64,000 nt of DNA from Betaproteobacteria bacterium (GTDB lineage Bacteria; Pseudomonadota; Gammaproteobacteria; Burkholderiales; Burkholderiaceae_E), in NCBI GenBank assembly GCA_031421635.1, contig JANOPA010000014.1, positions 15,424 through 79,423 of the forward strand, given 5' to 3'. The position numbers and the translations under genes were made by a program. The notes under the pieces are model-generated. The model searched no databases. It was not told the origin of the DNA and saw nothing but the letters and a program-made list of their open reading frames with translations. Below are positions 14,999 through 40,045 of this stretch, piece by piece (within the stretch, counting starts at the first letter, position 1; the number at the start of each line of letters is the position of its first letter).

Positions 14999-17900
14999 TT
15001 ACGCGATGCTGGGCTTGATCCAGCGCTTCGCAACTAAAGGCAGCAGGAGTAGTGTAGCGATAGTGGCCGAAACGATGCCGCCCACGATCACAACCGCAAA
15101 AGGTCGTTGTGTTTCGGCTCCAATGCCATGAGAGAGGGCGGCGGGCAGTAAGCCGAGGCCGGCCATGAGTGCTGTCATGATGATCGGGCGTAGTCGCTCT
15201 GCAGCGGCTTCGAATGCTGCGCCAGCGTGATCAATCTCCACAATGCGCTCCACCAGGATTAGGCCGTTTTGAACCGCAATGCCTGCGACGGCGATAAAGC
15301 CGACAGCAGCGGATACCGATAGGTGTAGACCTGCTAAAGCCAGTCCGGCGAATCCACCGATCAAGGCAAATGGAAGTACAGCCACGACCAATAATGCTGG
15401 CCGAAGCGCTTTCAATGCTAGGACTAAAAGTGTGAGTACGGCGAGGCAAGCAAGGGGTACGATGGTCCCCAAGCGCTTCATCGCGCGCTGCTGGTTCTCA
15501 AATTGGCCGCCCCATTCCAAGCGATATCCTACGGGCAGCGCAACCTCTTTGGACACCTTCGCCTGTGCTTCGGCCACAAAGCTACCAAGATCTCGACCGC
15601 TCAAGTTTAGTTTGACGGTAACGTTGCGTTCGCCCGCTTCGCGAGTAATTCTAGAAGCACCATCACGTACTTGAACCGTCGCAAGGCTGGACAGAGGCAC
15701 TGATGCCAAGCTACTCGCGGCGCCGTTAGCCGGGATAGGGAGTGGAATAGGGAGTTGGGAAATATCGTCAATGCTGCTACGCGCACTCGCCGATAATCTT
15801 AAAGTGATATCAAACGAGCGTTGCCCGAGGAAGAATGAGCCCACCGGCACGCCACCCAGAGCGCTACCTACCAAACGATTTAAGTCTGCCGCAAGCAGTC
15901 CATAGCGTTCCAACTGATCACGTCGCCATTGAATGTCGATTTCAGGCTGACCGGCGACTGGCAAGGCCGCAACATCTACGGCGCCGCGAAGTTTGGCGAG
16001 AATCTGAGCGACGGTGCTCGCCTTGGCTTCCAGGACGGCGAGATCAGGGCCAAAAATTTTTACGACAACCTCACCCTTGGCGCCTGATAAAGCCTCTTCC
16101 ATATTGTCTTGAATGACTTGTGAAAAGTTTGCACTAATGCCAGGGATCACGTTGAGCTTTTTGGCCATATCAGCAACCAAGGCTTCCTTGTTGTCGAACG
16201 CCCAAGTCTCTCGAGGCGTGAGCTGCGCGAGAATCTCCAAATTGTTCGGTCCTTTCGGATCCGTGCCATCGTCCGGCCGGCCCACTTGACCAATCACGCG
16301 TGAAACTTCTTTATAGCTTTTCAAAATATTTCTGACTTCACGCTCAATGGCCTTGGAATGTTCAAGCGACGATGAGGGCGCCAGACTCACCGTCAGCCAG
16401 ATATTGCCTTCGTCGAGTTTTGGTAAGAACTCGGACCCCAGCAAAGGGGATAGGGCCAAGGTGCCAATCAGTATGGCAAGTGCTGCCGTAATCACAAGTC
16501 CGGTGAAGGACGTTAAGTGCTCAAGCAGGCTCTTGTAATGATTCGAGAGCCAGGTCATCCAACCTAAATGTGCTTCCTCGAGCGGGTGCTTGGCGAGCCA
16601 CTTGGAGAGTAAGGCGGGCACTAGGGTCAGCGTGAGCACTAAACCCGCTGCGAGCGCTAAGGAAAGCGTCAATGCGACCGGCGTGAATATTCGACCCTCC
16701 ACCCTTTGGAAGGAGAAGATGGGCGCGAAGGCCGCGATAATGATTAGTTTAGAAAAGAGAATCGGTTTCGCCATCTGGCCTAAGGTTAGCTCGAGCGCTT
16801 TAAGCCTGTCTTCAGCACTCAATGCACCCGCGCTGAGGCGCACCATGAGGGCTTCAATGAGAACTACGGCCGAGTCGATAATGACTCCAAAATCTACCGC
16901 TCCGAGAGACATCAGATTCGCGGGAACCTTCATGAGCTGCATGCACATAAAGGCCAGCAACAGCGCCACCGGAATCACACAGGCTACGATCAAGGCCGCA
17001 GACCAGCGGCGCAAAAATAAGAACAAAATGGACAACACTAAAGCCGCACCAATCAGTAAGTTTTCCACCACGGTAGCCACGGTGTGGCCGACCAGGTCCG
17101 TTCTGCGATAGATGGGGATTAGTTTTACGCCGGGCGCTTCACGCGCCAGACGCTCGTTAATTTGAACAATCTTGTCATCGACTGCTTTGACCACCACCGC
17201 AGCGTTACTGCCCTTGGTCATTTGTACGATGCCTTCGACGACGTCGTCGGCATTGCCTTCCTTATCCGTATGAGAAACAATCCCGGCTCGGGGCCGCTCC
17301 CCAAAGCTTACTTCGGCGACATCGCCCACGCGCACTGGTTTGCCGTCCTCGGCTGCGATCACCGCTGCAGCAAGATCGGGCGCCGAGCGATAGAGTGCGA
17401 GGCCACGAATTACGAAGCTCTGATCCCCGCGACGCATCAGACCGCCTCCGGCATTGTCGCCACCGGCAGTAATGGCCTTTTGAAGGTCGTCCATAGTTAG
17501 GCGGTAACGCGCCAATTTGTAAGGGTCCACCCGGACTTGGAGTTCGCGAACGGACCCTCCAAAGCTCACAATATCGGCAACTTGCGGTACGACGCGCAAA
17601 GCGGGCCGGATCAGCCAGTCTTGCAGCACCCGTATTTCATCCCTTGGCATGGCCGCCGGTGCCTGAATGACATACCTAAATACCTCACCCACGGCATTGG
17701 AAAGCGGGGCGAGTTGAGGTTGTATGCCGGCTGGAAGCGTGGCATTTTGAATGCGCTCAAGTACTTGCGCCCGAGCGAAGAAGTCATTGGTACCGTCTTC
17801 GAAGGTGGCCGTGACCACGGACAAACCAGTGATCGAGACCGAGCGAATACGCGTCGCTCGAGGCGTTCCGCCAAGCTCTCGCTCAAGCGGTTGGGAAATT

Positions 17901-24180: not shown

Positions 24181-26178
24181 TTAGGCTAGATGCAAGGCCA
24201 CCAGCACCAGGTCGATGGCTTTAATCCCAAAGAAGGGCACGATTAATCCCCCCAACCCATAGATCAACATATTGCGACGAAGCAGCGCCGCGGCACCAAT
24301 AGCGCGGTACTTGACGCCCTTGAGCGCTAAAGGAATCAAAAAAACAATGATCAAGGCATTAAAAATTACGGCCGACAAAATCGCTAAAGATGGACTGCCC
24401 AGTTGCATAACGTCAAGTGCGGCCAACTGCGGATAGGTGGTTACAAAAATTGCGGGGATGATGGCGAAATACTTGGCGACATCGTTGGCAATTGAAAACG
24501 TGGTGAGCGAGCCGCGTGTCATCAGTAGGGCCTTCCCGGTCTCCACAATTTCTAGCAGTTTGGTGGGGTTTGAGTCTAGGTCCACCATATTGCCGGCTTC
24601 CTTGGACGCCTGCGTGCCGCTATTCATGGCTACGGCTACGTCGGCCTGTGCAAGTGCCGGAGCATCATTGGTGCCATCTCCGGTCATAGCGACAAGGCGA
24701 CCTTCTGCCTGGTACTTACGAATGAGCTTGAGCTTATCTTCAGGCGTGGCCTCAGCTCTACTAGGCCGAGCACGGTGAGGTCACTCGCGACGGCCAGGGG
24801 AGTACTTCCGCGACGTGCTATTTCGTCGGCCGCACGTAGGACTTCGGGAGGCATCACACCACCTAGTGCTTCGACGTGTCTTCTAATTGCATCAACCGCA
24901 CCCTTACGCAATTTTAAAACGCGACCGTCCAGCTGTTGTCGGTCGATACCACTCATACGGGTTTGGGCAGTGAATGCAATCTCGGTAATGGATCCACAGG
25001 AATTCCCAGGCCCTGCTAGCGGCTGAGTAAAGCCCATCTTCTCTGCGAGTACGATGATGCTGCGTCCCTCGGGCGTTTCGTCGGCCTGTGAAGCTTGCAT
25101 GACGCAAACACCCAGTTGACGCTCGCTCACTCCAGGTGCCGGAAAGAAAGCGCTGGCCTGACGGTTTCCATGAGTGATGGTACCGGTCTTGTCTAGCAAC
25201 AGGACATCGACATCGCTAGCGGCTTCGACTGCGCGACCTGAAGTTGCGATCACATTGGCTTGCATCATTCGACTCATGCCCGCCACCCCATCCGCAGAAA
25301 GCAGGCCTCCGATGGTTGTAGGAATCAGGCACACCAGTAAGGCAACAAGTGCTGTGAGACTCACGGCCGTGCCAGCCTTGGCCGCTTCCACACTGAACAG
25401 CGAGTACGGTAGGAGGGTCACGGTGACCATCAGGAATACGATAGTGAGTGCGACCAGCAAAATAGTTAGTGCAATTTCATTCGGCGTCTTTTGGCGTTTG
25501 GTGCCCTCGACCGTACTAATCATGCGATCAAGAAACGATTCGCCGGGATTCACGGTAATACGTACGACCAGCCAGTCGGACAGCACCTGGGTACCACCGG
25601 TCACGGACGAGAAATCCCCGCCCGACTCACGTACAACAGGCGCGGATTCACCCGTGATGGCGCTCTCGTTCACCGAGGCCACACCTTCAATCACTTCGCC
25701 ATCCAGTGGAATCATGTCGCCTGCATTAACGAGGCACACATCCCCTTTACGCAAGTTGAGCGCCTCTTCAGGTAACCAAGTTCTTCCGTAAAAAATATCT
25801 TCTGTAGCGGATATAAATTTTTTTGCCCAGGTGCTTTTTCAAACTGCGAAGCGACTCGGCTTGGGCCTTGCTACGGCCTTCTGCCAAGGCTTCCGCGAAG
25901 TTTGCGAACAACACTGTGAACCAGAGCCAGGTCGCTATGGCAACGATGAAGCCGAAGGGAGCATCCCCGACGCCTTGGAAAGCTTGTACGGCCAGTACAG
26001 TCGTCAAAATGCTACCGATGTAGACCACAAACATGACGGGGTTACGCCACTGGACACTTGGGCTCAGCTTGCGAAATGATGCCTTAATGGCGGGCTTGAG
26101 GAGCACCGGGTCAAAGATCGAAAGAAAAGTTTTTGTTTGCATTGTATTCACCTCAAAAGTTCCGATGTTTGATGACAT
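24181..26178 (-). pseudogene. kdpB: P-type ATPase subunit KdpB, split into three ORFs
   Basis: There are three fragments: 25768-26178, 24684-25754 and 24181-24687. Lesion 1 is a 1-nt frameshift at the A5 run (plus-strand T5 at 25835-25839), between 'ESLRSLKK' and '[13 protein letters not shown]...[13 protein letters not shown]'. Lesion 2, near 24754, is a deletion of ~48 codons plus a frameshift. It removes the 'KDIVK...TGDN...' segment just before '[39 protein letters not shown]'. Confidence 0.9.
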
Positions 26179-26181
26179 GCT

Positions 26182-27981
26182 TCAATGCCCAACCCAAAGC
26201 ATCAGATGCTCAACCATTGGGCCTAGAGCTAGCCCTGGTACGTAGTTAAGTAAACCCACCAATAGCACGGTGCCGATGAGCAAAACGACAAATAGCGGGC
26301 CATGGGTAGGCATCGTGCCTGCAGTCAAAGGTAGGCGGCTTTTGGCGGCCAATGCCCCGGCAATTGCCAGCACCGGCAAGATGACGCCGAAGCGACCAAA
26401 CCAGATCGTCAAAGCCAACATCCAGTTGTAAAATGGGGTATTGGCCGATAGCCCCGCAAATGCGCTGCCGTTGGTGTTGGCCGCGGAGCTAAAGGCATAG
26501 AAAATTTCGGAAAAGCCGTGCGCACCCGGATTGCTGATCCCGGCTTTGCCGTCGGCGGCTATGACTGCAATCGCCGTGCCCAGCAAGACCAGAATCGGGC
26601 TGACCAAAATCGCAATTGAGGTCAGTTTCATTTCATGGGCTTCAATCTTTTTACCCAAATACTCCGGCGTCCGACCGATCATTAGTCCGGCGATAAACAC
26701 GGTGAGAATGGCAAAAAGGAGCATGCCGTAAAGGCCGCTGCCTGTGTCTCCAAAAACCACTTCACCGAGCTGAATCATCACCATGGGTACCATGCCACCA
26801 ATTGGTGTGAAGGAGTCGTGCATGGCGTTCACCGCGCCGCACGAAGCTGCCGTGGTGATCACGGCAAACAAGCTTGAGGCGGTGATGCCGTAACGCACTT
26901 CCTTGCCTTCCATATTCCCGCCGACCTGCATGACGCTCTCGGTCTGATCTACCCCAAGGGTGCTGAGCAGCGGATTGCCGCTTTGTTCGGCTGGTGTAAT
27001 GACCGTTACGGCGATCACAAACATCACGACCATGGCAGCGAGCACCGCCCACCCCTGGCGCTGATCACCAACCAAGCGCCCGAAGGCAAAGCATAAGGCG
27101 CAGGGGATGAGAAATATGGCGAGCATTTGCAATAAATTACTGAGCGCCGTCGGATTCTCGTAAGGGTGGGCCGAGTTGGCGTTGAAGAAGCCGCCGCCAT
27201 TGGTGCCAATCATCTTAATGGCCTCTTGAGAAGCCACTGGTCCCATGGCCAAAGTCTGCTTTTCGGCTTTCAGATCTTCCATGACCGGTGGGCCCTGCGC
27301 GTCTTTAAGCGCTTGCCCGTCAGTGCCATTTTTTGGCTGTTGGTAACTAGTAACTTCCAAGGTGTTCACTTATCGGTACGGGTCGAAGTTTTGAATGACG
27401 CCCTGTCCGACAAGGAAGACGGCCAATAGCACTGATAGCGGCATCAGTAGCCAAGCGATGATACGGGTAACGTCCACCCAAAAATTACCCACCACGCGTG
27501 TGGATTGAGCAGCAAAACCACGGATAAGTGCAAAGGCGACGGCGATCCCGGTGGCAGCGGAAAAATAGTTCTGAACAGTAAGTGCCAGCATTTGCGTTAA
27601 ATAACTCATGGTGGATTCACCGGCGTAGCCTTGCCAATTGGTGTTGGTCACAAAACTGATTGCCGTGTTGAACGCCGAGTGCGGCGAGACCGGTGCCATG
27701 CCCGCTGGGTTCAGTGGTAGCCAGGTTTGCAGACGCTGCATGCCATAGACCACGAACACACCAATAGCATTGAAAGCTAGTACGGCTAATGCATACTGCG
27801 ACCATGACATCGAGTGGTCAGACGAAGTGCCAGCCAAGCTGAATAATAGTCGCTCTGTCCTCCGCATCCAGTTCGGAAGTTGACCCGAACTTAGACGGGC
27901 CAGCCAAGCACCCAGCGGCCAAGCAACGATGCCCAATAGAGCGAGATAGACGGCCAGCAAAGCCCATGACTTAATACTCAT
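26182..27981 (-). pseudogene. kdpA: Potassium-transporting ATPase subunit A with in-frame nonsense codon
   Basis: ORFs 27370-27981 and 26182-27369 are in the same frame, separated only by a TAA at 27370-27372 ('[16 protein letters not shown]'). Compare E. coli 'NFLPYQAVNTVEG'. The sequence is otherwise collinear with KdpA. Confidence 0.9.
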
Positions 27982-29434: not shown

Positions 29435-30976
29435 TCAGGCCAAAGAGGTTTCTCTTATGTCTTTTCGAATGTCTGAAAAAACTCCGCAACACACCCAGTA
29501 GTCCAGTCCCGGAACTTTCTCAAGATAGGTGCTCTTTAGAGAGGCCCGCCCAGTGGCCGGATTACGGACTTCGTAATCTATCCAGCCATTGCCTTGATCC
29601 CGAGCCACGGTGATCGCGGCCTTGACATAAAAAAATCCTTTGGCGTCGGTCAGCTCGAAGGTGTCGGTGCCGATTAGCGTCGGCTCGCCACCGTGGGCCA
29701 ACAAAAACCCGCGAAAATCGGAAAGCACAACAAACAGGTCGCGTTTATGAAATCCGGCCTCACGGTCGTTGAATTTGGCGGCAGCGGCGCTTGGGCCCCG
29801 GCGCGTCACCTCGGCCACTGCGCGCTGGACAAGTTCAACACAGGCCTCGCGGCTATTAAAGCGCGAGGCCTTCAACCCGACTAGACTTTGATCCAAGGCG
29901 AAGGCCTCCTGCTCAAGACCCGCCGCCAATTTTGCAACTTGATCGACGGCACTTGCGTTACTCTGTGTGAGGTTGGCCATTTGCTCGACCGCACTCTTGA
30001 TCTGTCCAACACCAGTGCTTTGCTCGCTGGAGGCGTTAGCGATGTCGTCGATGAGATCTTGTGCCTGTGCGACTTGAAGTAGAACATCTTCAAGAATTTT
30101 GGCGCTGTTGTTGGAGGCGACCATCCCACCTTGAATTTGCCGGGTGGCCGAAGTGATGCGCTCTCGGATGACTTTGGCGACATCGCCACTTCGATTGGAA
30201 AGCGCTCTGACTTCATCCGCGACCTGCGCAAAGCCTCGACCGTTGTTGCCTGCGCGCGCGGCCTCGATGGTCGCGTTTAGCGCAAGCATATTGGTTTGCG
30301 TAGCGAAGCTTTCAATCAGATCGATAATTGCAATCACCTTTTGGGACTTACGACCTGTTTCGTTGACTGCATTGCTAATTGCGATCACTTGATCGGCTCC
30401 CGCATAGGCAGCCTCCGTTGATTGTTTGGCGAGATCTTTGACTTCACGGCAGTTTTGTGCATTTCGTTCAATTGACGCGGTGAACTGCTCCAGACCTGCG
30501 CCAGTTTCTTCGAGCATCGCGGCGATTTCTTCGGCTTGGGTCAACAATCGATTGGCGTCCTGCGAGGTTTGCTTGCTGTTGTGGAGCAGGTTTTCCGCGA
30601 TCCTTGCGGTCTCGTCAGTCAATACCTTAACTCGCTCAGCATATCCAAGAACGAAGGGAACCACGCCTTGGTTGCGCCACCGGCTGTCGATATCCTTGGC
30701 GTCAAATTTCCAGTCACCGCTCAAGGCGCGCTTCAATAAATCGGCGCCGATGCTCAAATGCCGTTGGCGGTAGTAAGCGAATCCAAGGAAAAGGTAGGTC
30801 CCGGCAATCAATAGACCCACCACAAGCGCGGTTCTAAATTGACCCGGAGGAAAAATCGCTACGGCGAGTAAGGTGATCAAAATGAAGGCGCTACAGATGG
30901 GTCCAAATGCAGTGAGGCCAAAGCGCTGGTAGACCCTCAAGACAGGCCAGCCAAGAATTTCAAGAGTTTTACGCAT
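29435..30976 (-). CDS. Methyl-accepting chemotaxis protein: TM hairpin, signalling domain, C-terminal Cache-like domain
   Basis: Two closely spaced TM helices ('[16 protein letters not shown]' - PPGQFR - '[20 protein letters not shown]') leave no periplasmic domain. MCP hairpin tip '[42 protein letters not shown]'. The last ~150 aa read '[26 protein letters not shown]...[58 protein letters not shown]', which matches the single-Cache-2 pattern. Alternative starts are at 30982 and 31021. Confidence 0.85.
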
Positions 30977-32561
30977 GATCATGCTCCCGCTCAAAAACGC
31001 CGGCCGTGACACAGGCTTCATGGCCTTGAACCAACTGGGCGTAGACTAATTTATCCACAATCTTCCCGCTTGCGGGAAGCTTCACCTTACAGACCTGCCA
31101 GGATTTTTGCGTCGTTCGGAGTTGTTTACGGATAATCTCAATGTCGACGGGCAAATGGGTACGGGCATCGTTACTAAGATCTTTTCCGACGATGTTTGAA
31201 ATCGCGCTATGGGCGAGGCAAGGCCCATCAAAGCTCCAGATCGCGACAGCGTGTTCACACTGGTCCAGACTCGGATTGGCGTTGGAGAGATTAATGCTAT
31301 CGCAGACTTCCTGAAGCCCTCGTTCTTCGATGTCTTGAATGACTTGCTTCACCAGGCCGACAACGGTGTCCGTGTTCTTAAAGCGATCCTCTCCAAAGAC
31401 ATCGATCTTTGCGAGTAAACCAAGCGCGTCTTTGTTGGTGATGGCACTGACTCTCACCATATCATCGGCAGCAGCAGCATTTTGCTGTGTAATGGTGGCC
31501 ATTTGTTCGACGGCTGCCTTGATCTGTTCGGAGCCGCTGGTTTGTTCGGCTGACGCCGAAGCGATGTCTTGAATCAACTGATGAGTTTGCGCCACCAGGT
31601 CTGAAATTATTTTCATGGACTGCGATGCCGCTTCTGTTGACGTGCGGCTCGAGGACAGCTCTTCCAAGCATTCGCCGACTATGAGCTTTGCGTCCGCGGC
31701 GGCGAGAGAGGCGCGCTGGGCGAGCTTGCGCACTTCGGTGGCGACTACGGCAAAGCCACGGCCATGCTCGCCAGCGCGAGCCGCTTCGATGGCCGCATTG
31801 AGCGCCAATAAGTTGGTTTGAAACGCAATGTCCTCAATCATGGCGATAGAGCCCATCACATTCATCGACTCGGTAGAGGAGTCGCCCATGGTGTCCAGTA
31901 AGCTGTCCAACGCACCTTGAGCAGAGAGCACAAGATGACTCGCTTTTTCAGCCCGCTTGGCCGCTTCTTGTGTATTCACCATATTGCGTTCGACGGTCGC
32001 TGAAAACTCTTCCATCGCAGAGGCGCTCTCCTCCAACATACTTGCGATTTCTTCGGCACGATGAGACAAGGCTGCGGTGTTGCTGTCGAGTTGTTTACAT
32101 GAACCCGCCACTTCGTTGGCAGCTTGTCGCGTCGAGCCTGCCAACTGTTGAATTCTCGAATGTAGCTTGTAGGTCAGGTGTTGCACGATGTATTTCGGAT
32201 CTGGCTCTCGCTGTGCTGACCAACGCCCGTTGGTGAGTTTTTCAAAAATTCTTTGGGAAGTTTTTCGAACTTCAACCATATGCATTTGCACTGAAAATGC
32301 CACATAAATCGTGAAGGCCGCAAATAAGCTGAACAGCATGGGATGCGTGTCTGCTATGCCTAGTGAAGCCATACCGAAGAAAAGCACCATCATCACGCCG
32401 ACCACGGCATTTCCAAAGGCAACACCTGCCTTTGACAAGAGCAAGACCATGGGAGCGGTGATTCTCGCTAATAGATATTGAAGGGCTTCGTGCCCGTCAT
32501 GGCCTTTGCCGATCAAATCTTTTGTGATGTGATCTGGCTTACTGTGAAGATCATGTTTCAT
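30969..32561 (-). CDS. Methyl-accepting chemotaxis protein (paralog): TM hairpin, signalling domain, divergent C-terminal Cache-like domain
   Basis: TM hairpin '[17 protein letters not shown]...[16 protein letters not shown]'. Hairpin tip '[42 protein letters not shown]'. C-terminal ~140 aa '[28 protein letters not shown]...[36 protein letters not shown]'. The start overlaps the cheB stop. Confidence 0.85.
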
Positions 32562-33661
32562 GAGGAGAACCGTTGACTAAGTGTATGAATAATTTCTTGA
32601 GGAAAATCTTGAAGACTAATTTGCCGATGCGAGTGGCCGTTCTCAAACACTACCTTAGGCATACCATAGATGGCGCAGCTTGGCTCGTCTTGGCTAAGCA
32701 CGTAGCCGCCGCTCGTAAAAATATCCGCAGTACCGTTAGCACCGTCACGTCCCATGCCCGTGAGCACACAGGCCAAGCTTGCATCACCAAAAGCAAGGGC
32801 GACTGAAGAAAATAGTTTGTCGATGGACGGCCTGTATAGATCGGAGGGCAAGGGCTTGTCCAGTTTTACGTAAACATTCAGCGACTCCCGCCGATGCACT
32901 TGAAAATGGCAACCCCCTGGAGCGATGTAGGCGGTTCCTGGACAAAGTACCTCGCCGTGCTCCGCGAGTTTCACTCTGATGGCCTTTACCGAGCGGCTGA
33001 GCCGGTTGGTATATAGGGTCGTGAAGGATGTGGGCATGTGAATGGCAATCACGATAGGAGGGGAGTGCGCGGGCAGTTTTTCTAAAATGCTTGTGACCGC
33101 GCTTGGACCCCCAGTGGATGCGCCAATAGCGAGAATCGCTTGTGATCGGGGAGCAAGAGTGGAGGCCGCGGCAGGCGCCTTGCGAAGGCGCGTCTGCGCT
33201 GCCGAAATCCTCGCATTTGAATCGCTTAGATTTTGACGAATGCGCTTCGATCTAAAAGCGTGTCCCGCTTCGTATACTTTGATCAGTAATTCCTCGGCAT
33301 AATCTGAGAGGGTGCGTGTGTGCGGCTGCAGCCCTGGTTTGAGCACAAAATCGAGTGCTCCAAGCGCAAGGCAATCCAAGGTAATTTGAGCGCCTTCCCG
33401 AGTCATGCTGGATACCATAATGACGGGTATAGGACACTTGGAGAGGACATGCTTGAGGATTGTCGTCCCTTTCAGGTGTGGCATCTCGACGTCAAGGGTA
33501 ATAACATCGGGACCTAAACGCTCAATTGCTGCAACGACCTCTGATCCGTCCTGGCAAAAGCCGACGACGGAGATTTCGGGGTTCGATCTTAGGATCTTGG
33601 CGATCACACCGCGCGCGACTACTGAGTCGTCTACGATCAGAACTTTGACAGGTGCATCCAT
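32558..33661 (-). CDS. cheB: Chemotaxis response regulator protein-glutamate methylesterase
   Basis: Receiver domain ('VLIVDDS', '[10 protein letters not shown]', 'KP') plus a CheB methylesterase domain ('[12 protein letters not shown]', 'HMP', 'GMGRDG'). Confidence 0.9.
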
Positions 33662-33662
33662 C

Positions 33663-34301
33663 TTAGGATTTTTCGAAGAGGCTGATGTCGGGCTTTAGAG
33701 TGGTGCTGCTTTGCACTAAGGCCGCTGCGTGGCGGCTTTCTCTGTGCTGGACGCGGTTCAAGCTTACTTCGATATGGCGGCACTCAGGTTGGCTGAGCTG
33801 GGTGGCCCAATAGAGTCTGCGTGCAAAAATCCCTCCAGTGTCTTGACCACGTAGCTTTATCCTCTCTTGCCTTAAGTACTGCGCTGCAAATTGAATATTG
33901 CACAGTCCCACATTGGTGAGTTCAGTGAGGATCTGACCTCCCCCGAAAATCCAGGCCAGCATCCGATCCTTCTTGGCACCTTGGGACAAGAGTTCATTGA
34001 TGAGAAGTTCCATGGCGTAACTTCCGTAGCGCGCGTTTCGATTGGTCGGGTCCGCGTTCGATATCTCAGGCAAGCCAATCTCTCGTTGGGCGGGAAGCAT
34101 AAAGTGATTCATGCCGATCAAGCCTGCAGCTTGGTCCGTGAGGCAAACCGCGACACATGAGCCAAGAACCGTCATTAGGCCTTCGGAGGGTTTGGGATTG
34201 ACACCTTCAGACGACGCTTTTCGCGATGTTGCAAACTCACCTGGCAGGAGTCGACGGACCCAACTGGAATGTTCGCGATCAAAAAAGCGATGCGGTTTCA
34301 T
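33663..34301 (-). CDS. cheD: Chemoreceptor glutamine deamidase CheD
   Basis: 'LGSCVAVCLTD' and 'GMNHFMLP' are typical of the CheD family. Coupled to cheR (4-nt overlap). Confidence 0.85.
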   Translation of the reverse strand: MKPHRFFDREHSSWVRRLLPGEFATSRKASSEGVNPKPSEGLMTVLGSCVAVCLTDQAAGLIGMNHFMLPAQREIGLPEISNADPTNRNARYGSYAMELLINELLSQGAKKDRMLAWIFGGGQILTELTNVGLCNIQFAAQYLRQERIKLRGQDTGGIFARRLYWATQLSQPECRHIEVSLNRVQHRESRHAAALVQSSTTLKPDISLFEKS

Positions 34302-35104
34302 AGCGCTCGACGCGGGCTAAACACGGTCCGACCGCGGCTTTGGAATAATTCGTCGGAGTGAATGAGCATCTCCGTGTGCCCAGTGAAAAACAGGCCATCC
34401 ATTTTCAAGTGACGAGCGACGTACTCTGCAAACTGACGTTGTGTGGTCGTATTAAAGTAAATCATGACGTTACGACAGAAGACAGCGTCAAGAGGCTTCC
34501 AAGGGAGAACGCTTCCCTTGGCGGCCAGATTAAAAGGCTTGAACTCGACGAGTCGTTTCAGCTCGGGTTTGACTTGAACTTGGGCTTGATTGATCGAGTC
34601 GAAATACTTTGAGATCAGTCCAGGCTTGAGATGGAGGAGCTCGGACTTCGAATAGATACCTTGCTTCGCGAGGCTTAGTGCGTGGGTGTCAATGTCGCTT
34701 GCTAACACGAAGGCTTGCTTGCGATCAAGTAGACTGGGGTAGGCCTGAGTTAGAGCAATCAGTATGGAATAAGGCTCTTGCCCTGATGAGCATCCCGCGC
34801 TCCAAATCTTGGCGCTGGAAAAGTTTTCCTTGAGATGATCCACCAGGATTGGGAAGTGGTGAGCCTCTCTGAAAAATGAGGTCACATTGGTGGTCATCGC
34901 GTTGACGAAACCTTCGACTTGGGTTCGATCTTTTTCGACCAAGTCGACGTAGTCCGCAAGCTTGGTAAGGCCTAGGCTGCGCATCGGGCGGCTCAAGCGA
35001 TTCGAAGCCATTTGACGCTTACTCGGGTTCAGTTCAATCCCGGCATGTTTTCCAAGTAAGCTGCGAACGGATGCGAACGCCTGATCATCAAGAATCAGGC
35101 TCAT
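34298..35104 (-). CDS. cheR: Chemotaxis protein methyltransferase CheR
   Basis: 'TNVTSFFREAHHF', 'IWSAGCSSGQEPYSI' (SAM-binding) and 'DAVFCRNVMIYF'. 4-nt overlaps on both sides. Confidence 0.9.
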   Translation of the reverse strand: MSLILDDQAFASVRSLLGKHAGIELNPSKRQMASNRLSRPMRSLGLTKLADYVDLVEKDRTQVEGFVNAMTTNVTSFFREAHHFPILVDHLKENFSSAKIWSAGCSSGQEPYSILIALTQAYPSLLDRKQAFVLASDIDTHALSLAKQGIYSKSELLHLKPGLISKYFDSINQAQVQVKPELKRLVEFKPFNLAAKGSVLPWKPLDAVFCRNVMIYFNTTTQRQFAEYVARHLKMDGLFFTGHTEMLIHSDELFQSRGRTVFSPRRAL

Positions 35105-35649
35105 GAGAATGTCGCCTCTTCAGTGACTCGTGCCACCGCGTGGAGTTCTTCGGGTTGGAGGACCTTCTGTAAGTCAATCAGGAGCACAACCTGTTCTCCA
35201 AGCTGAGTCATTCCAATTAAATACCGAATATCAATCGCCATGGTGGTTCGGGGAACCGTCTGAATCGCGGCCGAGTGAATGCTGATGACATCTAGAACGC
35301 TATCCACCTGAATCCCGACTTTCCGAGACTCAAGCTCACTGATCAGCACCAGGTCCTGGCGACCTGCGACCTTTTCACGATTCAGATTGAAGCGCTCCTT
35401 GAGATCGATCACTGGAACAATTTCACCGCGAAGACTGGTGACGCCGACAACATAGGAGGGTGCGTGGGCTACTCGCGTCAGGTGGGCGCCGGTTCGAACT
35501 TCCCGGATTTGCAGCAGGCTAACGGCGTAGGTATGGCCCGAGACCTTGAAGGTCAGGAATGATTGGCTAACAGCATGGTCGGTCGGCTTGGCCATGATCG
35601 AGTCCTCTGGATGTGACGGTTGGGTCGCGTGAACGGAGATCTTGAGCAT
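35101..35649 (-). CDS. cheW: Chemotaxis coupling protein CheW
   Basis: CheW-like domain ('FLTFKVSGHTYAVSLLQIREV', 'VVGVTSLRGEIVPVIDL', 'IGMTQLGEQVVLLIDL'). I chose the start at the ATG at 35649, which has an AGGA SD 16 nt after the cheA stop. The track start at 35784 would overlap cheA. Confidence 0.85.
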   Translation of the reverse strand: MLKISVHATQPSHPEDSIMAKPTDHAVSQSFLTFKVSGHTYAVSLLQIREVRTGAHLTRVAHAPSYVVGVTSLRGEIVPVIDLKERFNLNREKVAGRQDLVLISELESRKVGIQVDSVLDVISIHSAAIQTVPRTTMAIDIRYLIGMTQLGEQVVLLIDLQKVLQPEELHAVARVTEEATFS

Positions 35650-35665
35650 CTTTTTTCCTGGTCGG

Positions 35666-37642
35666 TTACGCTGTGACGAGTTGCGCGGTGCCAATGGTTC
35701 GACCAAGAGCGATCGAATCCAAGACGAAAGTGATTTTCCCAGCGCCGAGTACGGTCGCGCTTTGACAATACTTTGCAGGCCCAAGATTTTTCTCGATGTT
35801 CTTGATCACAATTTGCTTTTCACCAATAATTCGATGCACGCCCAGTAGGCTTAGATCGTCACCGTTGCGTAGAACAATGCCCAGGAGTGATCCGGGTGCC
35901 GGATGTAAGGGTGTCGTTTCCATCAGATCGGCGAGGTGTGCATACGGGACAAGCGCGGTGCGGAGCGGGAAAAGCTTTTGGCCATTCGGCAGCTCTTGCA
36001 AGCCGGAAGGGTGCAGTTGAATGCATTCGGAAATCGAACTCAGCAGGATTGCGTATTGTTCGCCGTCGCATTCGACGATGAGCGCATCGGTCAAAGCCAA
36101 AGTGAGGGGCAGGACGATTGAAAAGCAAGTCCCCCGTCCGGGTGTGCTGTGGACCTGTAGTTCACCATTAAGCGACTTGATCGCTTCGGCTACGGCGTCT
36201 AAGCCGACCCCTCGACCCGACCAATGATCGACCTGAGCAGCGGTTGAAAAGCCCGGCGAGAAAATTAGCTCCGCCCATTGTGCGTCGCTGCGCGGTGTGT
36301 GTTCGTCCGCCAAACCTTTCTGGATTGCTTTGGTACGAATTGCCTGAATATCAAATCCACGTCCATCTTCTTCAATGTGAAGTACGAAGCTTGCGCCGCG
36401 CTGTTCAGCCCGAAGGCGAAGGGTCGCGGTTTCTGCTTTTCCTAAGGAGATGCGTTCGCTGGGTGACTCTAAACCGTGATCCAATGCGTTGCGAATCAAG
36501 TGAGTGACAGGATCGATCAGACGCTCAATGATATTGCTGTCGAGCTCGATTTGCTCACCGACAATGATGACTTGGACTCGTTTGCCGAGTTCAACTTTAG
36601 CGTCGCGCACGACTCGCTCAAAGCGCTTAAACAAAGTCGTGACGGGCGACATGCGCATGGAAAGAATTGCGTCCTGAAGTTGTCGAGTTTGCCGACCGAG
36701 ACGCTCAAAGAGTTCAATAACTTCTTGATCGATCACCTTGCTTTCAAGCTCGGCCTGAAAAATGGCCAGATCTGCGAGATGGCCAAGAAGTAAATCAATT
36801 TTTTCACTTGGAACCTGAATGGCGCGCTGCTCTCGTCGTCGCTCGACTTGGATCGCGGTAGGCTCATCGATATTGGCGTCGTCGTTTTCTTGAACTTCCG
36901 TAATCTCAAGATCGCAAAGGTCGTCGATCCATTCGAATAGGGAGCGAATCTCTTGCGCGGAACGAGTGGTTTCCAGAATGGTTGACCAATGCAGAAAGTT
37001 CGGCTCCGTGGCGTAGCCTGGAGCTTGATTTTCCCAGGCAATAACCTCTTTCTCGTCCCATAAAGCCGTTGTTGTAAGTGTTCCTTGTTCGGCAAGATTG
37101 TCTAGATAACGCAGAGGGTCGTTGCCACAGCTTCGCATGCCAGGATGAGGTCGAAAGCGCAGTACGAATTTATGTGTTCCTGATTTTCGCCTGAAATCAG
37201 AAGAGGATGTTGACTTTGAGAGAGCTTCGCTAGCGTCCAGAGCTTCTTGAATTTGATTCAGCTTCCGACTAAGTGCATCGACACGCTGAGTGGAAACATC
37301 GCCCTGCTTTTGTTGGGCACTACCTACCATTGAGCGCAGAAGATCTAAGGCACTTAAGAAAAGACTGATGTGCTCATCGTTGAGTTTGAGGTGGGAGGCG
37401 CCACTTATACGTCGATAGGTTTCCAGAACGGTTTCAAGTGCGTGCGCAAACTCTGCCATTTGATTAAAGCCGAGCGTTCCTGCAGAACCCTTGATCGAAT
37501 GAATTGCTCGAAATGCGGCATTAATGCTTTCGTTAATTGGGACTTGCTTTTCAATGCAAAGCAATGCCTCTTCGGCTTGATCTAGGCAGTCAAGCACTTC
37601 TTCAAAAAATGCAGAGTGAAATTGACTTAAGTCAATTGACAT
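35666..37642 (-). CDS. cheA: Chemotaxis histidine kinase CheA
   Basis: Hpt domain 'FRAIHSIKGSAGTLGF', a dimerisation domain, HATPase ('HLIRNALDHGLE', 'DDGRGFD', 'GRGVGLDAV') and a C-terminal CheW-like domain. The ATG at 37642 overlaps the end of the upstream cheY by 11 nt; the track start at 37651 is a TTG. Confidence 0.9.
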   Translation of the reverse strand: MSIDLSQFHSAFFEEVLDCLDQAEEALLCIEKQVPINESINAAFRAIHSIKGSAGTLGFNQMAEFAHALETVLETYRRISGASHLKLNDEHISLFLSALDLLRSMVGSAQQKQGDVSTQRVDALSRKLNQIQEALDASEALSKSTSSSDFRRKSGTHKFVLRFRPHPGMRSCGNDPLRYLDNLAEQGTLTTTALWDEKEVIAWENQAPGYATEPNFLHWSTILETTRSAQEIRSLFEWIDDLCDLEITEVQENDDANIDEPTAIQVERRREQRAIQVPSEKIDLLLGHLADLAIFQAELESKVIDQEVIELFERLGRQTRQLQDAILSMRMSPVTTLFKRFERVVRDAKVELGKRVQVIIVGEQIELDSNIIERLIDPVTHLIRNALDHGLESPSERISLGKAETATLRLRAEQRGASFVLHIEEDGRGFDIQAIRTKAIQKGLADEHTPRSDAQWAELIFSPGFSTAAQVDHWSGRGVGLDAVAEAIKSLNGELQVHSTPGRGTCFSIVLPLTLALTDALIVECDGEQYAILLSSISECIQLHPSGLQELPNGQKLFPLRTALVPYAHLADLMETTPLHPAPGSLLGIVLRNGDDLSLLGVHRIIGEKQIVIKNIEKNLGPAKYCQSATVLGAGKITFVLDSIALGRTIGTAQLVTA

Positions 37643-38009
37643 ATTGATCAACCAGAATCTGATTGATTTTGTTGGTTAAGGACTCTTCCGTGAAGGGCTT
37701 GGCGATCCAATCCATTGCACCGGCTTGTTTTGCCTTTTCAATGTTCTCGTCCTTCGCTCCTTTGGCAAGCACCACGATTGGAGTGTTCTTGAAATGCTCG
37801 ATTAACTTCAGACGCTGAATCAAAGTGATCCCGTCCATGCCTGGCATGTTGATATCGGTGATCACCAAGTGAACTCGTCGACCTTTGGCGATGGTCAGAG
37901 CTTCCTCCCCAGAACTTGCATGAAAAACTCGGTGTCCAAATTTCTGGAGGACGGAGGCTACGATATTGCGTATGGACGCAACATCATCAACAATCATAAT
38001 TCTTGCCAT
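37632..38009 (-). CDS. CheY-like single-domain response regulator (atypical switch residue)
   Basis: 'IMIVDDV', 'LVITDINMPGMDG' and 'AKPF' are present. At the position of the conserved Thr/Ser (CheY T87) the sequence is 'VVLAKGAK', i.e. Ala. Confidence 0.85.
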   Translation of the reverse strand: MARIMIVDDVASIRNIVASVLQKFGHRVFHASSGEEALTIAKGRRVHLVITDINMPGMDGITLIQRLKLIEHFKNTPIVVLAKGAKDENIEKAKQAGAMDWIAKPFTEESLTNKINQILVDQYVN

Positions 38010-38015
38010 AGTTTT

Positions 38016-38378
38016 CTACCCTAAGACTCGGGGAAGCACGTCAATCAGTGCCTGTGGGTTAAAGGGTTTCACGATCCATCCTGTGGCTCCTGCCGCTCGG
38101 CCCGCGGCCTTCATGTTGGATCCCGCCTCGGTTGTCAGTACTAAGATGGGTTTGGCCTGAGTGCTTGGCTGAGCCCGTAAGGCCTTGATAAGGTCCAAGC
38201 CACTCATGTTCGGCATGTTCATGTCGGTAATAATCAGATCGAAAGGCTCCGTTTTACAAGCGTCCAGCGCAGCCTCGCCGTCGACAGCGGAGCGGACTTC
38301 ATGGCCCGCCTTTTCAAGCGTGAACACAACCATTTGGCGCATGGTGACTGAGTCGTCGACAATAAGTATTTTTGCCAA
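38016..38378 (-). CDS. cheY: Chemotaxis response regulator CheY
   Basis: Canonical 'ILIVDDS', 'LIITDMNMPNMSG', 'VLTTE' and 'GWIVKPF'. Confidence 0.9.
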   Translation of the reverse strand: MAKILIVDDSVTMRQMVVFTLEKAGHEVRSAVDGEAALDACKTEPFDLIITDMNMPNMSGLDLIKALRAQPSTQAKPILVLTTEAGSNMKAAGRAAGATGWIVKPFNPQALIDVLPRVLG

Positions 38379-38390
38379 AATTTACTCCTT

Positions 38391-39782
38391 TCAGGCGAAC
38401 AGATCGACATGGTTGGATGCCTTCAAACTGGGAGACGCTTTTTCACGCTCAATTCTCGACAGGTCTTGTTCGAATGATGTGCGCTGGCTCGCAGTCGCAC
38501 CGTGCTGTGCGAGGCGATGACTGGCCCCGACGAGATCGACCACAAGTGGTTCTGGGGCCGCATGGAGGTTGGACCCGTTAATGAGATTGCGAGTCCGCAC
38601 TGCAATGGCTTCAAGATGAAGGGCGTCTACTGAAGTGAGTTTTTGCGTCATGATGTCGTGATACTGCATGGCGACAATTGAGGCTTGAATATGTGACTCG
38701 GTGTCTTTGCTCAGTTCGTTGAGCGCCTTGACGGTACTTCGGGTTTCATCGAGTTTCTGTTGAATAGCTGTGCTGACTGCGGCCACTTCGGTGCTTTCTT
38801 TTTGCGCCGTGTGCATGAGACTTGTGAGGTTACTTTGCATGTCCATAGTAACTTGGCTCAGCGCAGTTCGGATCTCTTCGACGTCTGCTCTTAGTTCTTG
38901 CAGTGTCCTTCGATGATTTTTTAGAAAACTCCACGGATCTAGGGTGTTGGAAGATTGTGCGCCGATCTCGATAGGGCTTTCAAGGTCCAAGCCGGAGCCC
39001 ATGACGTTCAAAGCCATTTGTTTGGCGGCTATATCTGCTTCTCCGAGTAGGTCGTCCGCACGAGCTGCAGTCGTCATGGCGGCTTGCTGCTTTTCGATCA
39101 GACGCGCGGCATGCTCGGCGTTATCTAGCAACTGGTAGTTCTGCCGCTTAAGAATTGTGGAAGCCAATAGGGCCAGGTCCGAGAGTGAAGCCTGTTGGTC
39201 GTTTCGTGTGCTGGTTGATTCCAATAGAGTCTTAGAAAGGTGGTTCTGAGTGTCCTGATTTCGTTCGATCTCGCGAATACTATTGGCAAGTTCGAGTGCC
39301 GAATGGGTGGAAATGTTGATCACTGAGCGAATCTCGATTTGAGCGCTATTGCTGCTGGCGAGCGCCTTCCAAGCATAGTTCGACCACTCTTTGCTTTGTA
39401 TCGCGTGGGCACCAAACCTGCTTGGTAGAAAATCTGTTTCAATCCCGAGTTCGGGCTCAGCGCGGTCGATGATTTTTTGTTGTGGGTGTGGAGTCGTTTG
39501 TGATAATGAAGTGAGAGTGGGCTCAATCTCACCCGTAGAACTCGCGTTTACTGATATGGCAGGGGCTGTTTTTTTGATCTTCTTTTTTATGCTTTTTTGT
39601 ACAAATTTAGGCGATAAAACTTCGGCGTAAATAAAGGCAGCGGCGCCCAGCACAGCGATCAAGCTACATGCTATGGCCCAAAGCGGTGCGAACAAAACCG
39701 TGATCAAGGCAGGCGCGCTGACTGCGAGGAGTACTCGGGCCAGACGCGGGCTGCGCCACATCCGTTTGATCAGTTTGTTCAA
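38391..39782 (-). CDS. Membrane-anchored coiled-coil protein; candidate CheZ-like phosphatase (hypothesis)
   Basis: N-terminal TM hairpin 'VLLAVSAPALITVLFAPLWAIACSLIAVLGAAAFIYA' and a long helical, Q/E/L-rich region. The motif 'VAMQYHDIMTQKL' (38637-38669) resembles the CheZ active site 'MAQDFQDLTGQVI' (D-x3-Q). The gene sits directly upstream of two cheY genes. The start may be TTG at 39782 or ATG at 39761. I am moderately confident it is coding and much less confident of the function. Confidence 0.6.
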   Translation of the reverse strand: MNKLIKRMWRSPRLARVLLAVSAPALITVLFAPLWAIACSLIAVLGAAAFIYAEVLSPKFVQKSIKKKIKKTAPAISVNASSTGEIEPTLTSLSQTTPHPQQKIIDRAEPELGIETDFLPSRFGAHAIQSKEWSNYAWKALASSNSAQIEIRSVINISTHSALELANSIREIERNQDTQNHLSKTLLESTSTRNDQQASLSDLALLASTILKRQNYQLLDNAEHAARLIEKQQAAMTTAARADDLLGEADIAAKQMALNVMGSGLDLESPIEIGAQSSNTLDPWSFLKNHRRTLQELRADVEEIRTALSQVTMDMQSNLTSLMHTAQKESTEVAAVSTAIQQKLDETRSTVKALNELSKDTESHIQASIVAMQYHDIMTQKLTSVDALHLEAIAVRTRNLINGSNLHAAPEPLVVDLVGASHRLAQHGATASQRTSFEQDLSRIEREKASPSLKASNHVDLFA

Positions 39783-40045
39783 AACGACACCTCCCTTGCC
39801 GACAGGAATTGCGAGCGCAGGCCGTAACGATCTAGATAGACCGCTAGATGATCAAGGTCGCAAAAGAGCACCTTGTTTCGAAGGCAAAGCATGTCCTGAA
39901 GCGTCGGATATTCGAGACGAAAAAGAGCCTGGCAGCTCACGCTGATGCGTGCAGTCGACGAAGCCATAGCCAGCGGCTCGCTGATCAGCGAGCGCAGCAC
40001 CGGCATGGCATTGCCGTCATCTATCGAAAGACGATGTTCAGTCAC
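39779..40045 (-). CDS. Small protein (88 aa), possibly STAS-like; first gene of the che operon
   Basis: GTG start with a GAGGGA SD 5 nt upstream. The stop overlaps the next gene's start. Weak resemblance to short STAS/anti-sigma-antagonist folds ('ISVSCQALFRLEYPTLQDMLCL...LDHLAVYLDRYGL'). The family assignment is tentative. Confidence 0.4.
   Translation of the reverse strand: MTEHRLSIDDGNAMPVLRSLISEPLAMASSTARISVSCQALFRLEYPTLQDMLCLRNKVLFCDLDHLAVYLDRYGLRSQFLSAREVSF

Follow-up and report, generated by a model that had tools for sequence, protein, structure and literature searches.

The ancestral F7 chemosensory systems, including Che2 of Pseudomonas aeruginosa, cluster III of Vibrio cholerae and Che1 of Shewanella oneidensis, have no assigned phosphatase for phosphorylated CheY (CheY-P) and no agreed output. 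Their gene clusters encode a McpA-like receptor that is conserved and evolves together with the F7 genes, although the F7 array does not require it; this receptor associates with F6 arrays, contains a transmembrane (TM) region and falls outside the heptad classes (PMC7184735). The C-terminal motif of these receptors (DIELF, EVELF, EIDLF and similar ends in Supplementary Table 12 of PMC7184735) is strikingly conserved, with Val in place of an aromatic residue at the second position; it does not bind CheR and is described there as having no known partner or role. Here we analyze a protein of 463 amino acids (aa), denoted X463, encoded by a minus-strand open reading frame (ORF) at 38391-39782 of a 64,000-nucleotide window, the whole stretch of betaproteobacterial DNA that was studied (positions 15,424 to 79,423 of contig JANOPA010000014.1, assembly GCA_031421635.1). 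X463 is derived from a chemoreceptor and, judging from the sequence comparisons described below, is probably a candidate response-regulator phosphatase of the DxxxQ type, built on a membrane-anchored receptor scaffold that lacks the signalling tip.

The segments of X463 were delineated from hydropathy and two AlphaFold models, one of the full-length protein with a mean predicted local distance difference test score (pLDDT) of 65, and one of the cytoplasmic part, built on a 47-sequence alignment, with a mean pLDDT of 79:

38391..39782, minus strand: X463, a tip-less McpA-like protein with a CheZ-like box (ORF, alignments and profile comparisons)
39618..39749, minus strand: predicted TM hairpin, aa 12-55, without a periplasmic domain (hydropathy, basic flanks, model helices 12-31 and 34-55)
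39414..39617, minus strand: predicted disordered juxtamembrane linker, aa 56-123 (pLDDT about 30; unalignable among homologues)
38997..39413, minus strand: N-arm of the helical hairpin, aa 124-262 (models; counterpart of the signalling-domain N-arm in the receptor alignment)
38937..38996, minus strand: degenerate hairpin tip, aa 263-282 (alignment; pLDDT below 50)
38574..38936, minus strand: C-arm, aa 283-403, a predicted single 120-residue helix that bears the box (models; pLDDT 95-97 around the box)
38637..38675, minus strand: CheZ-like box VAMQYHDIMTQKL, aa 370-382 (invariance; alignments with CheZ and with the receptor box)
38415..38573, minus strand: predicted flexible C-terminal linker, aa 404-456 (pLDDT 40-55, two short helices only)
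38394..38414, minus strand: terminal peptide NHVDLFA, aa 457-463 (an x-V-D/E-L-F end with one extra residue)

The original prediction, made from the sequence of this DNA alone, located a CheZ-like motif at 38637-38669 of X463. The start and the numbering of D376 and Q380 (codons at 38655-38657 and 38643-38645, respectively) are correct, whereas the end falls 6 nucleotides short of 38675. In the genome, the pattern A..[FY][QH]D[ILM]..Q has a single match, X463 itself, among the 2.64 million residues of stop-to-stop ORFs of at least 100 aa. Across 17 homologues with 37-83% identity, A371, M372, Q373, Y374, D376, Q380 and K381 are invariant, and the tail of this narrow family reads SN(D/E)VDLF, with F462 nearly invariant. 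A profile search of 1.84 billion representative proteins retrieved only 55 relatives, which form a graded series from X463-like sequences, through proteins with a half-decayed tip, to bona fide receptors. The middle group combines the X463-type TM hairpin and the half-decayed tip with IIVAMQFQDITQQKLE and a VELF end, and the proteins at the receptor end have an LQFQDxTxQ box and a GD(I/V)ELF end; in the wider superfamily, the tail conforms to xVELF. In a 33-sequence alignment spanning the series from receptors to X463, Q373, D376 and Q380 are the only invariant columns, with F462 nearly so, and these same three columns are the only invariant ones with 47 sequences, at identities of 15-87%. Thus, the motif is conserved both among the orthologues, where the original prediction had proposed to look, and across the wider superfamily. 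Because the tip has decayed whereas the box and the tail remained invariant, the conservation points to the box plus the tail as the core function.

A CheZ profile, made from 19 genes of genomes within the same phylum, was compared with the superfamily using hhalign. The superfamily matched CheZ at 90% (E 1.6e-6), with D376 and Q380 placed on the invariant catalytic Asp and Gln of CheZ. The consensus IIVAMQFQDITQQKL agrees with CheZ MMAQDFQDLTGQVI at A, F, Q, D, I/L, T and Q, covering both of the described CheZ motifs, AXXFQ and DXXXQ; epsilonproteobacterial CheZ also has Tyr at the aromatic position. In X463, the arrangement is A371-x-x-Y374-H-D376-x3-Q380, with the Asp/Gln pair at i, i+4 on the C-terminal helix of the hairpin, as in CheZ, and the hydrophobic register, as read from the sequence, equals that of CheZ, which would place the pair at the exposed heptad positions c and g. 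When the 15 box columns were removed, the match dropped from 90% to 7.4%, and the control with reversed CheZ gave 6.1%. Canonical receptors reached 22% against CheZ, in the wrong register and with the CheZ box opposite a gap, and the X463 family alone reached 5.7%, which is not significant, in the same register as the superfamily. Outside the box, the alignment of the superfamily with CheZ sets the X463 C-arm against the CheZ N-arm, which is topologically inconsistent. Taken together, the controls indicate that the likeness to CheZ is real and superfamily-specific but local, extending over about 35 residues, with no domain homology established. Hence the alignment of the motif with CheZ that was initially proposed holds at the level of the superfamily, for D376 and Q380, and is lost without the 15 columns.

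The same comparisons do not bear out the further proposal that X463 is a lengthened, membrane-tethered CheZ. X463 has no PF04344 match at E values up to 1 (the curated cut-off is 30.7 bits), and 12 of the 33 relatives show sub-threshold PF04344 matches (best E 4.7e-4; for example, 13.5 bits for P0031, one of the receptor-type relatives). With either AlphaFold model as query, Foldseek retrieved nothing more specific than generic helical bundles and antiparallel coiled coils, none reaching E 0.001, and CheZ was outside the top 50. Similarity to the CheZ four-helix bundle over the whole hairpin was not found, and we reject homology to the entire CheZ domain because both the motif deletion and the reversed control are at background. 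Compared with CheZ (PF04344; 1KMI for the Escherichia coli protein, and the remote Azorhizobium and Helicobacter forms), X463 shares the AxxF/Y-x-D-x3-Q arrangement on the C-terminal helix of a hairpin, a predicted flexible linker followed by a short acidic/hydrophobic terminal peptide ending in Phe, and a gene located beside cheY; it differs in lacking a family-level match, in its receptor-derived arms of about 120 residues and in its membrane anchor. The resemblance of NHVDLFA to the C-terminal peptide of CheZ, which had also been pointed out at the outset, is borne out to the extent that the tail is conserved behind a predicted disordered linker, as in CheZ; it resembles CheZ ends such as EIDALFN and VDDLLxSLGF and is one residue shorter. 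The N-arm signature of CheZ, PDAxxRLxYVxxxTEQAA, is at best faintly echoed in X463. With the box deleted, the best match to CheZ was between N-arm residues 140-177 (39252-39365, minus strand) and the CheZ N-arm, a non-significant alignment (P 0.005) that is topologically consistent and sets the consensus QxEIxxVixxTExAVlxI against ARDRLxYVxxxTEQAAxxxL. This echo could hint at a deeper homology of the hairpins.

The origin of the box can be traced within the receptors. In the alignment of the superfamily with receptors, QYHDIMTQKL of X463 stands opposite the canonical receptor box QM(D/A)x(I/V)TQQNA, which sits just below the second methylation helix. In the family, the LALN motif and the box Asp are always 118 residues apart, compared to 103-104 residues for the matching position in the receptors of the window, and this difference of about 14 residues equals two heptads. 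Given the alignment and the two-heptad offset, the box is a remodelled receptor box rather than an inserted piece of CheZ. By this alignment, receptors are the source of Q373, the I/V, the T and, largely, Q380. The new and invariant residues are the Asp, at a position where the canonical receptors examined have T, N or G, and an aromatic residue that replaces Met. Because the D376 position is variable in canonical receptors of the same loci, the Asp is a family-specific gain. The receptor origin also shows this family-specific Asp arising exactly one turn before the Gln. We considered whether the motif is generic to receptors and rejected this option because the genome has the motif only once and the CheZ box finds no aligned counterpart in canonical receptors.

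The receptor ancestry of X463 is apparent from a profile-profile comparison in which seven canonical receptors from this and related loci matched the superfamily at 99.3% (E 3e-20) over 229 columns that cover both arms, so that the entire hairpin is homologous to that of canonical methyl-accepting chemotaxis proteins (MCPs; PF00015). Searches with the X463 sequence itself against Pfam, NCBIfam and PDB (phmmer and profile) yielded no match, and specifically no PF00015 match in Pfam, whereas the intermediates show full-length but sub-threshold MCPsignal matches (17-27 bits vs the cut-off of 34.6). Unlike canonical MCPs, X463 has no conserved tip, has an invariant Asp where receptors vary and an aromatic residue for Met, and ends in a tethered x-V-D-L-F, where canonical MCPs have an xWxxF pentapeptide or no extension. 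A pentapeptide tethering CheR or CheB was considered for the X463 tail and rejected, given that there is no aromatic residue at position 2 and that no CheR binding was reported for the McpA-type motif (PMC7184735), to which the HVDLF(A) end of X463 corresponds.

Among the relatives, P0031 is a true MCP with the box and the tail that occupies the operon slot of X463 (STAS, then the gene, then cheY), in the order STAS, MCP, cheY, cheA, cheW, MCP, MCP, cheR, cheD, cheB. In the P0070 locus, from a Sulfuricellaceae genome, the order is MCP, STAS, RR-PP2C, cheY, cheA, cheR, cheD, cheB, a stage-2 arrangement. Both agree with the “stage 1/2” F7 clusters of Ortega et al. 2020 (PMC7184735). One homologue is annotated as CttP, and all 121 retrieved homologues of P0070, which are CttP-like, contain LQFQD[LM]xxQ, with the end G[DE][IV][ED]LF in 120 of them. 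With the McpA-like receptors (McpA/CttP, PA0180, of P. aeruginosa, VCA1088 of V. cholerae and SO_2117 of S. oneidensis), X463 shares an N-terminal TM region that lacks a sensor domain, the constant spacing noted above within a helical hairpin, a box of the LQFQDxxxQ type, a (D/E)(I/V)(D/E)LF end behind a variable linker, and a gene cluster in which a STAS gene and cheY are its neighbors and cheA, cheW, cheR, cheD and cheB are also present. It differs from them in the degenerate CheA/CheW-binding tip and the lack of a PF00015 match, in QYHD replacing QFQD, in the extra residue past the terminal Phe, in the second cheY paralogue, and in the host, which has no flagellum and no F6 array to join. 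Since the published McpA-like set is defined by a PF00015 match, X463 is a derivative of this lineage rather than a member of it as published; on the alignments and gene order, we interpret it as a tip-degenerate offshoot of the McpA/CttP-like lineage of F7 clusters that has retained the same operon slot.

A distant relative, P0064 (660 aa), has the box SLQYQDITRQKVEHV in the first half of its sequence; the other half contains a second tip-like segment, LIALNAQVLAAQAGHQGAG, and the protein ends in GDNVELF. Its sequence suggests a soluble, twin-hairpin member of the superfamily.

Hydropathy and the AlphaFold models agree with the initial description of X463 as a protein with an N-terminal TM hairpin and a long helical region. 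A hydrophobic stretch of about 39 aa (aa 16-54) is interrupted by the invariant P24 and P33 and has basic residues at both flanks, which indicates a TM hairpin with both ends in the cytoplasm; its loop is about 2 residues long. S11-R16, P24, P33, W35 and Y52-K59 are invariant in the X463 family. The TM hairpin and its borders (aa 11-59; SPRLxR..., YAE(V/I)LSPKF) are among the best-conserved parts of the narrow family, a level of conservation beyond the needs of a mere anchor, so that a specific membrane partner may exist. The two receptors of the operon do not share this TM hairpin. In the models, helices are predicted at 12-31, 34-55, 124-192, 200-262 and 283-401/403, and disorder at residues 56-123 and about 404-463. 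The juxtamembrane linker begins with a basic part, turns rich in Ser, Thr and Pro and, like the C-terminal linker, differs among the relatives in length and sequence. The N-arm comprises two helices with a break at 193-199 and has N175, Q179, L186 and L187 conserved. At the turn, KQMALNVMGSGLDLES (followed by ...SSNTLDPW) stands in the alignment where receptors have the CheA/CheW-binding tip. Thus, X463 has lost this tip while keeping the TM-hairpin anchor, the long helical hairpin of the dimer type and the tethered C-terminal peptide.

The reading that we favor, with a rough probability of 0.45, is that X463 is a membrane-tethered CheY-P phosphatase on a receptor scaffold. The terminal SN(D/E)VDLF peptide, on a flexible leash of about 55 residues, would capture phosphorylated CheY, likely the first CheY of the operon, and the exposed D376 and Q380, which occupy the c and g heptad positions in the C-arm helix, one turn apart as in CheZ, would enter the active site of the receiver. 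There, Q380 would orient the hydrolytic water, with D376 paired to the conserved Lys of the receiver, and CheY-P would be dephosphorylated at the membrane, by D376/Q380 on a dimeric bundle, next to the receptor array of the same operon. By analogy, this mechanism would be the one established for CheZ, and the same DxxxQ logic is also present in HisKA_3 kinases and in CheT of Sinorhizobium meliloti. According to the account of CheT in PMC12654446 (Agbekudzi et al. 2024), this DXXXQ protein was shown to act as a selective phosphatase on one of two CheYs, and no homology with CheZ is detectable in it; like X463, it combines the motif with a che operon that encodes two CheYs and a STAS protein (CheS), and unlike X463, it is described as small, soluble and CheR-binding, a comparison that relies on that literature description only.

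Several observations weigh against this assignment. The likeness to CheZ is confined to about 35 residues, depends on the 15 box columns (7.4% without them) and is not significant for the X463 family taken alone (5.7%), and the Foldseek searches were uninformative. Part of the box (Q, a hydrophobic residue, I/V, T and Q) is inherited from the receptor box, so that its conservation could be structural, and this inheritance weakens the argument that only catalytic residues are invariant. The residue before the Asp is His in X463 and Gln in CheZ and most of the relatives, and the tail, one residue short of the CheZ pattern (E/D)(I/V)D(A/D)L(L/F), has an altered helical register. With two CheYs in the operon, a phosphate sink could end the signal and no phosphatase would be needed, and deletion of mcpA-like genes caused no loss of F7 arrays, with McpA joining F6 arrays like a receptor (PMC7184735).

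The most serious competing explanation, which we consider distinctly less probable than the phosphatase assignment but still a realistic option, is that X463 is a non-catalytic docking or scaffold protein in which the box is the retained structural box of receptors, and the tail binds CheY, CheA, CheD, CheB or the STAS-like protein, so that the partner is localized or sequestered at the membrane. The box is, indeed, positionally the canonical receptor box, and its likeness to CheZ is merely local. However, a purely structural box needs no invariant surface-type Asp at a position where canonical receptors vary, and the Gln counterpart, which is Q, S or N in canonical receptors, is invariant in the superfamily. 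The STAS gene is always adjacent, and translationally coupled in this locus; in S. meliloti, the STAS protein CheS acts by binding CheA, as stated in the description of that system in PMC12654446. McpA-like proteins integrate into arrays (PMC7184735), which would suit a scaffold as well, but the array-integrating tip is exactly the part of X463 that has decayed.

We regard as unlikely the possibility that X463 is still a sensor, the altered tip of which couples to the CheA and CheW of the operon or joins trimers of the two neighboring receptors, with the box and the tail serving adaptation by tethering CheR, CheB or CheD. The receptor ancestry, the sub-threshold but full-length MCPsignal matches that the intermediates keep, the report of CttP as a chemotaxis transducer, and the presence of cheR, cheD and cheB in the operon are all compatible with such a role. 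Nevertheless, X463 has lost the tip consensus, its turn is predicted to be disordered, it lacks a sensory domain and has only a minimal TM loop, its TM hairpin is unlike those of the two receptors, and the McpA tail, without an aromatic residue at position 2, bound no CheR (PMC7184735).

In the subfamily, the box reads H375-D376-x3-Q380-K-L (aa 375-380 at 38643-38660, minus strand). This H-D-x3-Q arrangement resembles the H-box (HDxxxQ) of the HisKA_3 domain in kinases of the NarX/DesK type, another DxxxQ phosphatase motif. It raises the question whether X463 could be a phosphotransfer or phosphate-sink element in which His375 accepts the phosphoryl group back from CheY-P, which is very improbable: H375 is nearly invariant in the 18-member family, but across the wider superfamily, where the box and the tail are shared, its place is taken by Gln, Asn, Phe or Glu, and Pfam searches found no HisKA_3 or ATPase domain match. 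A phospho-accepting role of His375 is unlikely because the residue is not conserved outside the subfamily; sporadic occurrences of the box His in the wider family include P0037, P0047, P0052, P0056 and P0059. Least probable of all is a decaying pseudo-receptor without function: degenerate sequences are found in the tip, in the adjacent STAS gene and elsewhere in the genome (the kdp locus), but the frame of X463 is intact, and homologues at 37-83% identity keep at least 60 invariant positions and the same operon in different surroundings.

Returning to the phosphatase assignment, the gene context speaks for it. X463 belongs to a tight operon with the order ORF88, X463, cheY, second cheY, cheA, cheW, cheR, cheD, cheB and two receptors. 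In addition to X463, the operon includes the following features:

39779..40045, minus strand: ORF88, a degenerate STAS-like ORF of 88 aa (same slot in the operons of relatives)
38016..38378, minus strand: first cheY, 120 aa (PF00072, 1e-28)
37632..38009, minus strand: second cheY paralogue, 125 aa (PF00072)
29435..37651, minus strand: cheA, cheW, cheR, cheD, cheB and two receptors without a periplasmic domain (Pfam matches)

The X463 gene, which the original prediction placed first in the operon, is actually second, after ORF88. It starts with TTG, preceded by a GGGAGG Shine-Dalgarno sequence, and this start overlaps the stop codon of ORF88 as TTGA. The resulting N-terminus, MNKLIKRMWRSPRL, agrees with MSKLLKRMWRSPRL of the homologues, which have MxKLxKRMWRSPRL in common. 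A simple scan upstream of ORF88 found no promoter-like site. In two related loci, L020 and L021, the flanks differ from those in the window, yet the X463 operon is kept, with the rest of the operon in the same gene order. In one of the receptors (29435-31021, minus strand), the signalling domain (aa 196-352) is followed by a C-terminal sCache_2/dCache_2 domain, a layout also present in L020 and L021.

The slot upstream of the X463-type gene shows a gradient of STAS similarity, from a PF13466 match at 7e-16 in L026 and 4e-7 in L023 to a sub-threshold 0.02 in L020/L021 and no match for ORF88 in the window. ORF88 is thus the end of a decay series of the STAS gene that always precedes the McpA-like gene. 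In related operons, the aligned STAS relatives already are without the usual phosphorylatable Ser (RVDGAAL, RVDAAAL, RLEYPTL).

In every context examined, cheY directly follows the X463-type gene. The first CheY is 54-59% identical to the CheYs of L026 and L024, retains DxNMP, LTTE and KPF, and is orthologous to the CheY encoded after McpA-like genes in F7 clusters; it is the likely substrate of X463. The second CheY is a lineage-specific paralogue in which Ala replaces the switch Thr/Ser (VLAKGA). This Ala is kept in the orthologous operons of L020, L021 and L023 and is, therefore, a stable feature of operons of the tip-less type rather than a local mutation.

At the genome level, neither CheZ, CheC, CheX nor FliM was found in the assembly, which is 98.4% complete. 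The absence of FliM supports the earlier notion of a non-flagellar che operon, and no other known CheY-P phosphatase is encoded in the genome, a context that accords with the proposed phosphatase activity. The only other CheA-like genes encode a 2048-aa ChpA-like protein, beside a 763-aa receptor (C32:16882-25379), and a 1228-aa CheA-receiver hybrid, beside an 834-aa receptor-like ORF (C26:142114-148883). Together with the lack of FliM, these loci suggest that only pilus-type and alternative-function pathways are present. There is no flagellar F6 system for a McpA-like protein to enter, which fits the loss of the tip. A natural experiment is thereby provided by a sediment betaproteobacterium without flagella, in which the anchor, the box and the tail of X463 stayed strictly conserved as the receptor tip decayed.

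In the searchable literature, which is itself incomplete, our searches for a CheZ-like motif or domain in chemoreceptors, or for such a box in McpA-like receptors, gave no result, and the key papers on McpA-like receptors, including PMC7184735, contain no mention of a CheZ-like box. A CheZ-type Asp/Gln pair and a tethered peptide on a McpA-like scaffold constitute a concrete and directly testable hypothesis. If confirmed, it would add a further, receptor-based solution to the dephosphorylation of response regulators and would bear on the origin of CheZ. A broader and more doubtful extension, which we put forward only tentatively, is that the whole McpA-like superfamily (PA0180/CttP, VCA1088, SO_2117 and the tip-less offshoots) consists of receptor-shaped CheY-P phosphatases, tethered to arrays or to the membrane, that are not primarily sensors, with the conserved C-terminus acting as a CheY-docking peptide and LQFQDxxxQ as the active site. 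If so, McpA-like proteins would supply the missing signal terminator of the ancestral F7 pathways that lack CheZ, X463 would be a natural minimal form showing what stays once array integration is unneeded, and a common ancestry would be suggested for the catalytic helix of CheZ and the receptor box QMDxVTQQNA.

Relatives of X463 occur only in genomes of uncultured Betaproteobacteria, and the locus itself is present in freshwater-sediment metagenomes of two studies; the metagenome runs that hold it are DNA only, and no RNA runs, and hence no transcript evidence, were found. Elsewhere in the window, the kdp locus (26182-27981 and 24684-25754, both on the minus strand) has kdpA split into two ORFs of 203 and 395 aa, which match profile positions 2-196 and 197-548, and a kdpB-like ORF that spans just part of the E1-E2 ATPase. 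The kdp locus appears to be in decay.

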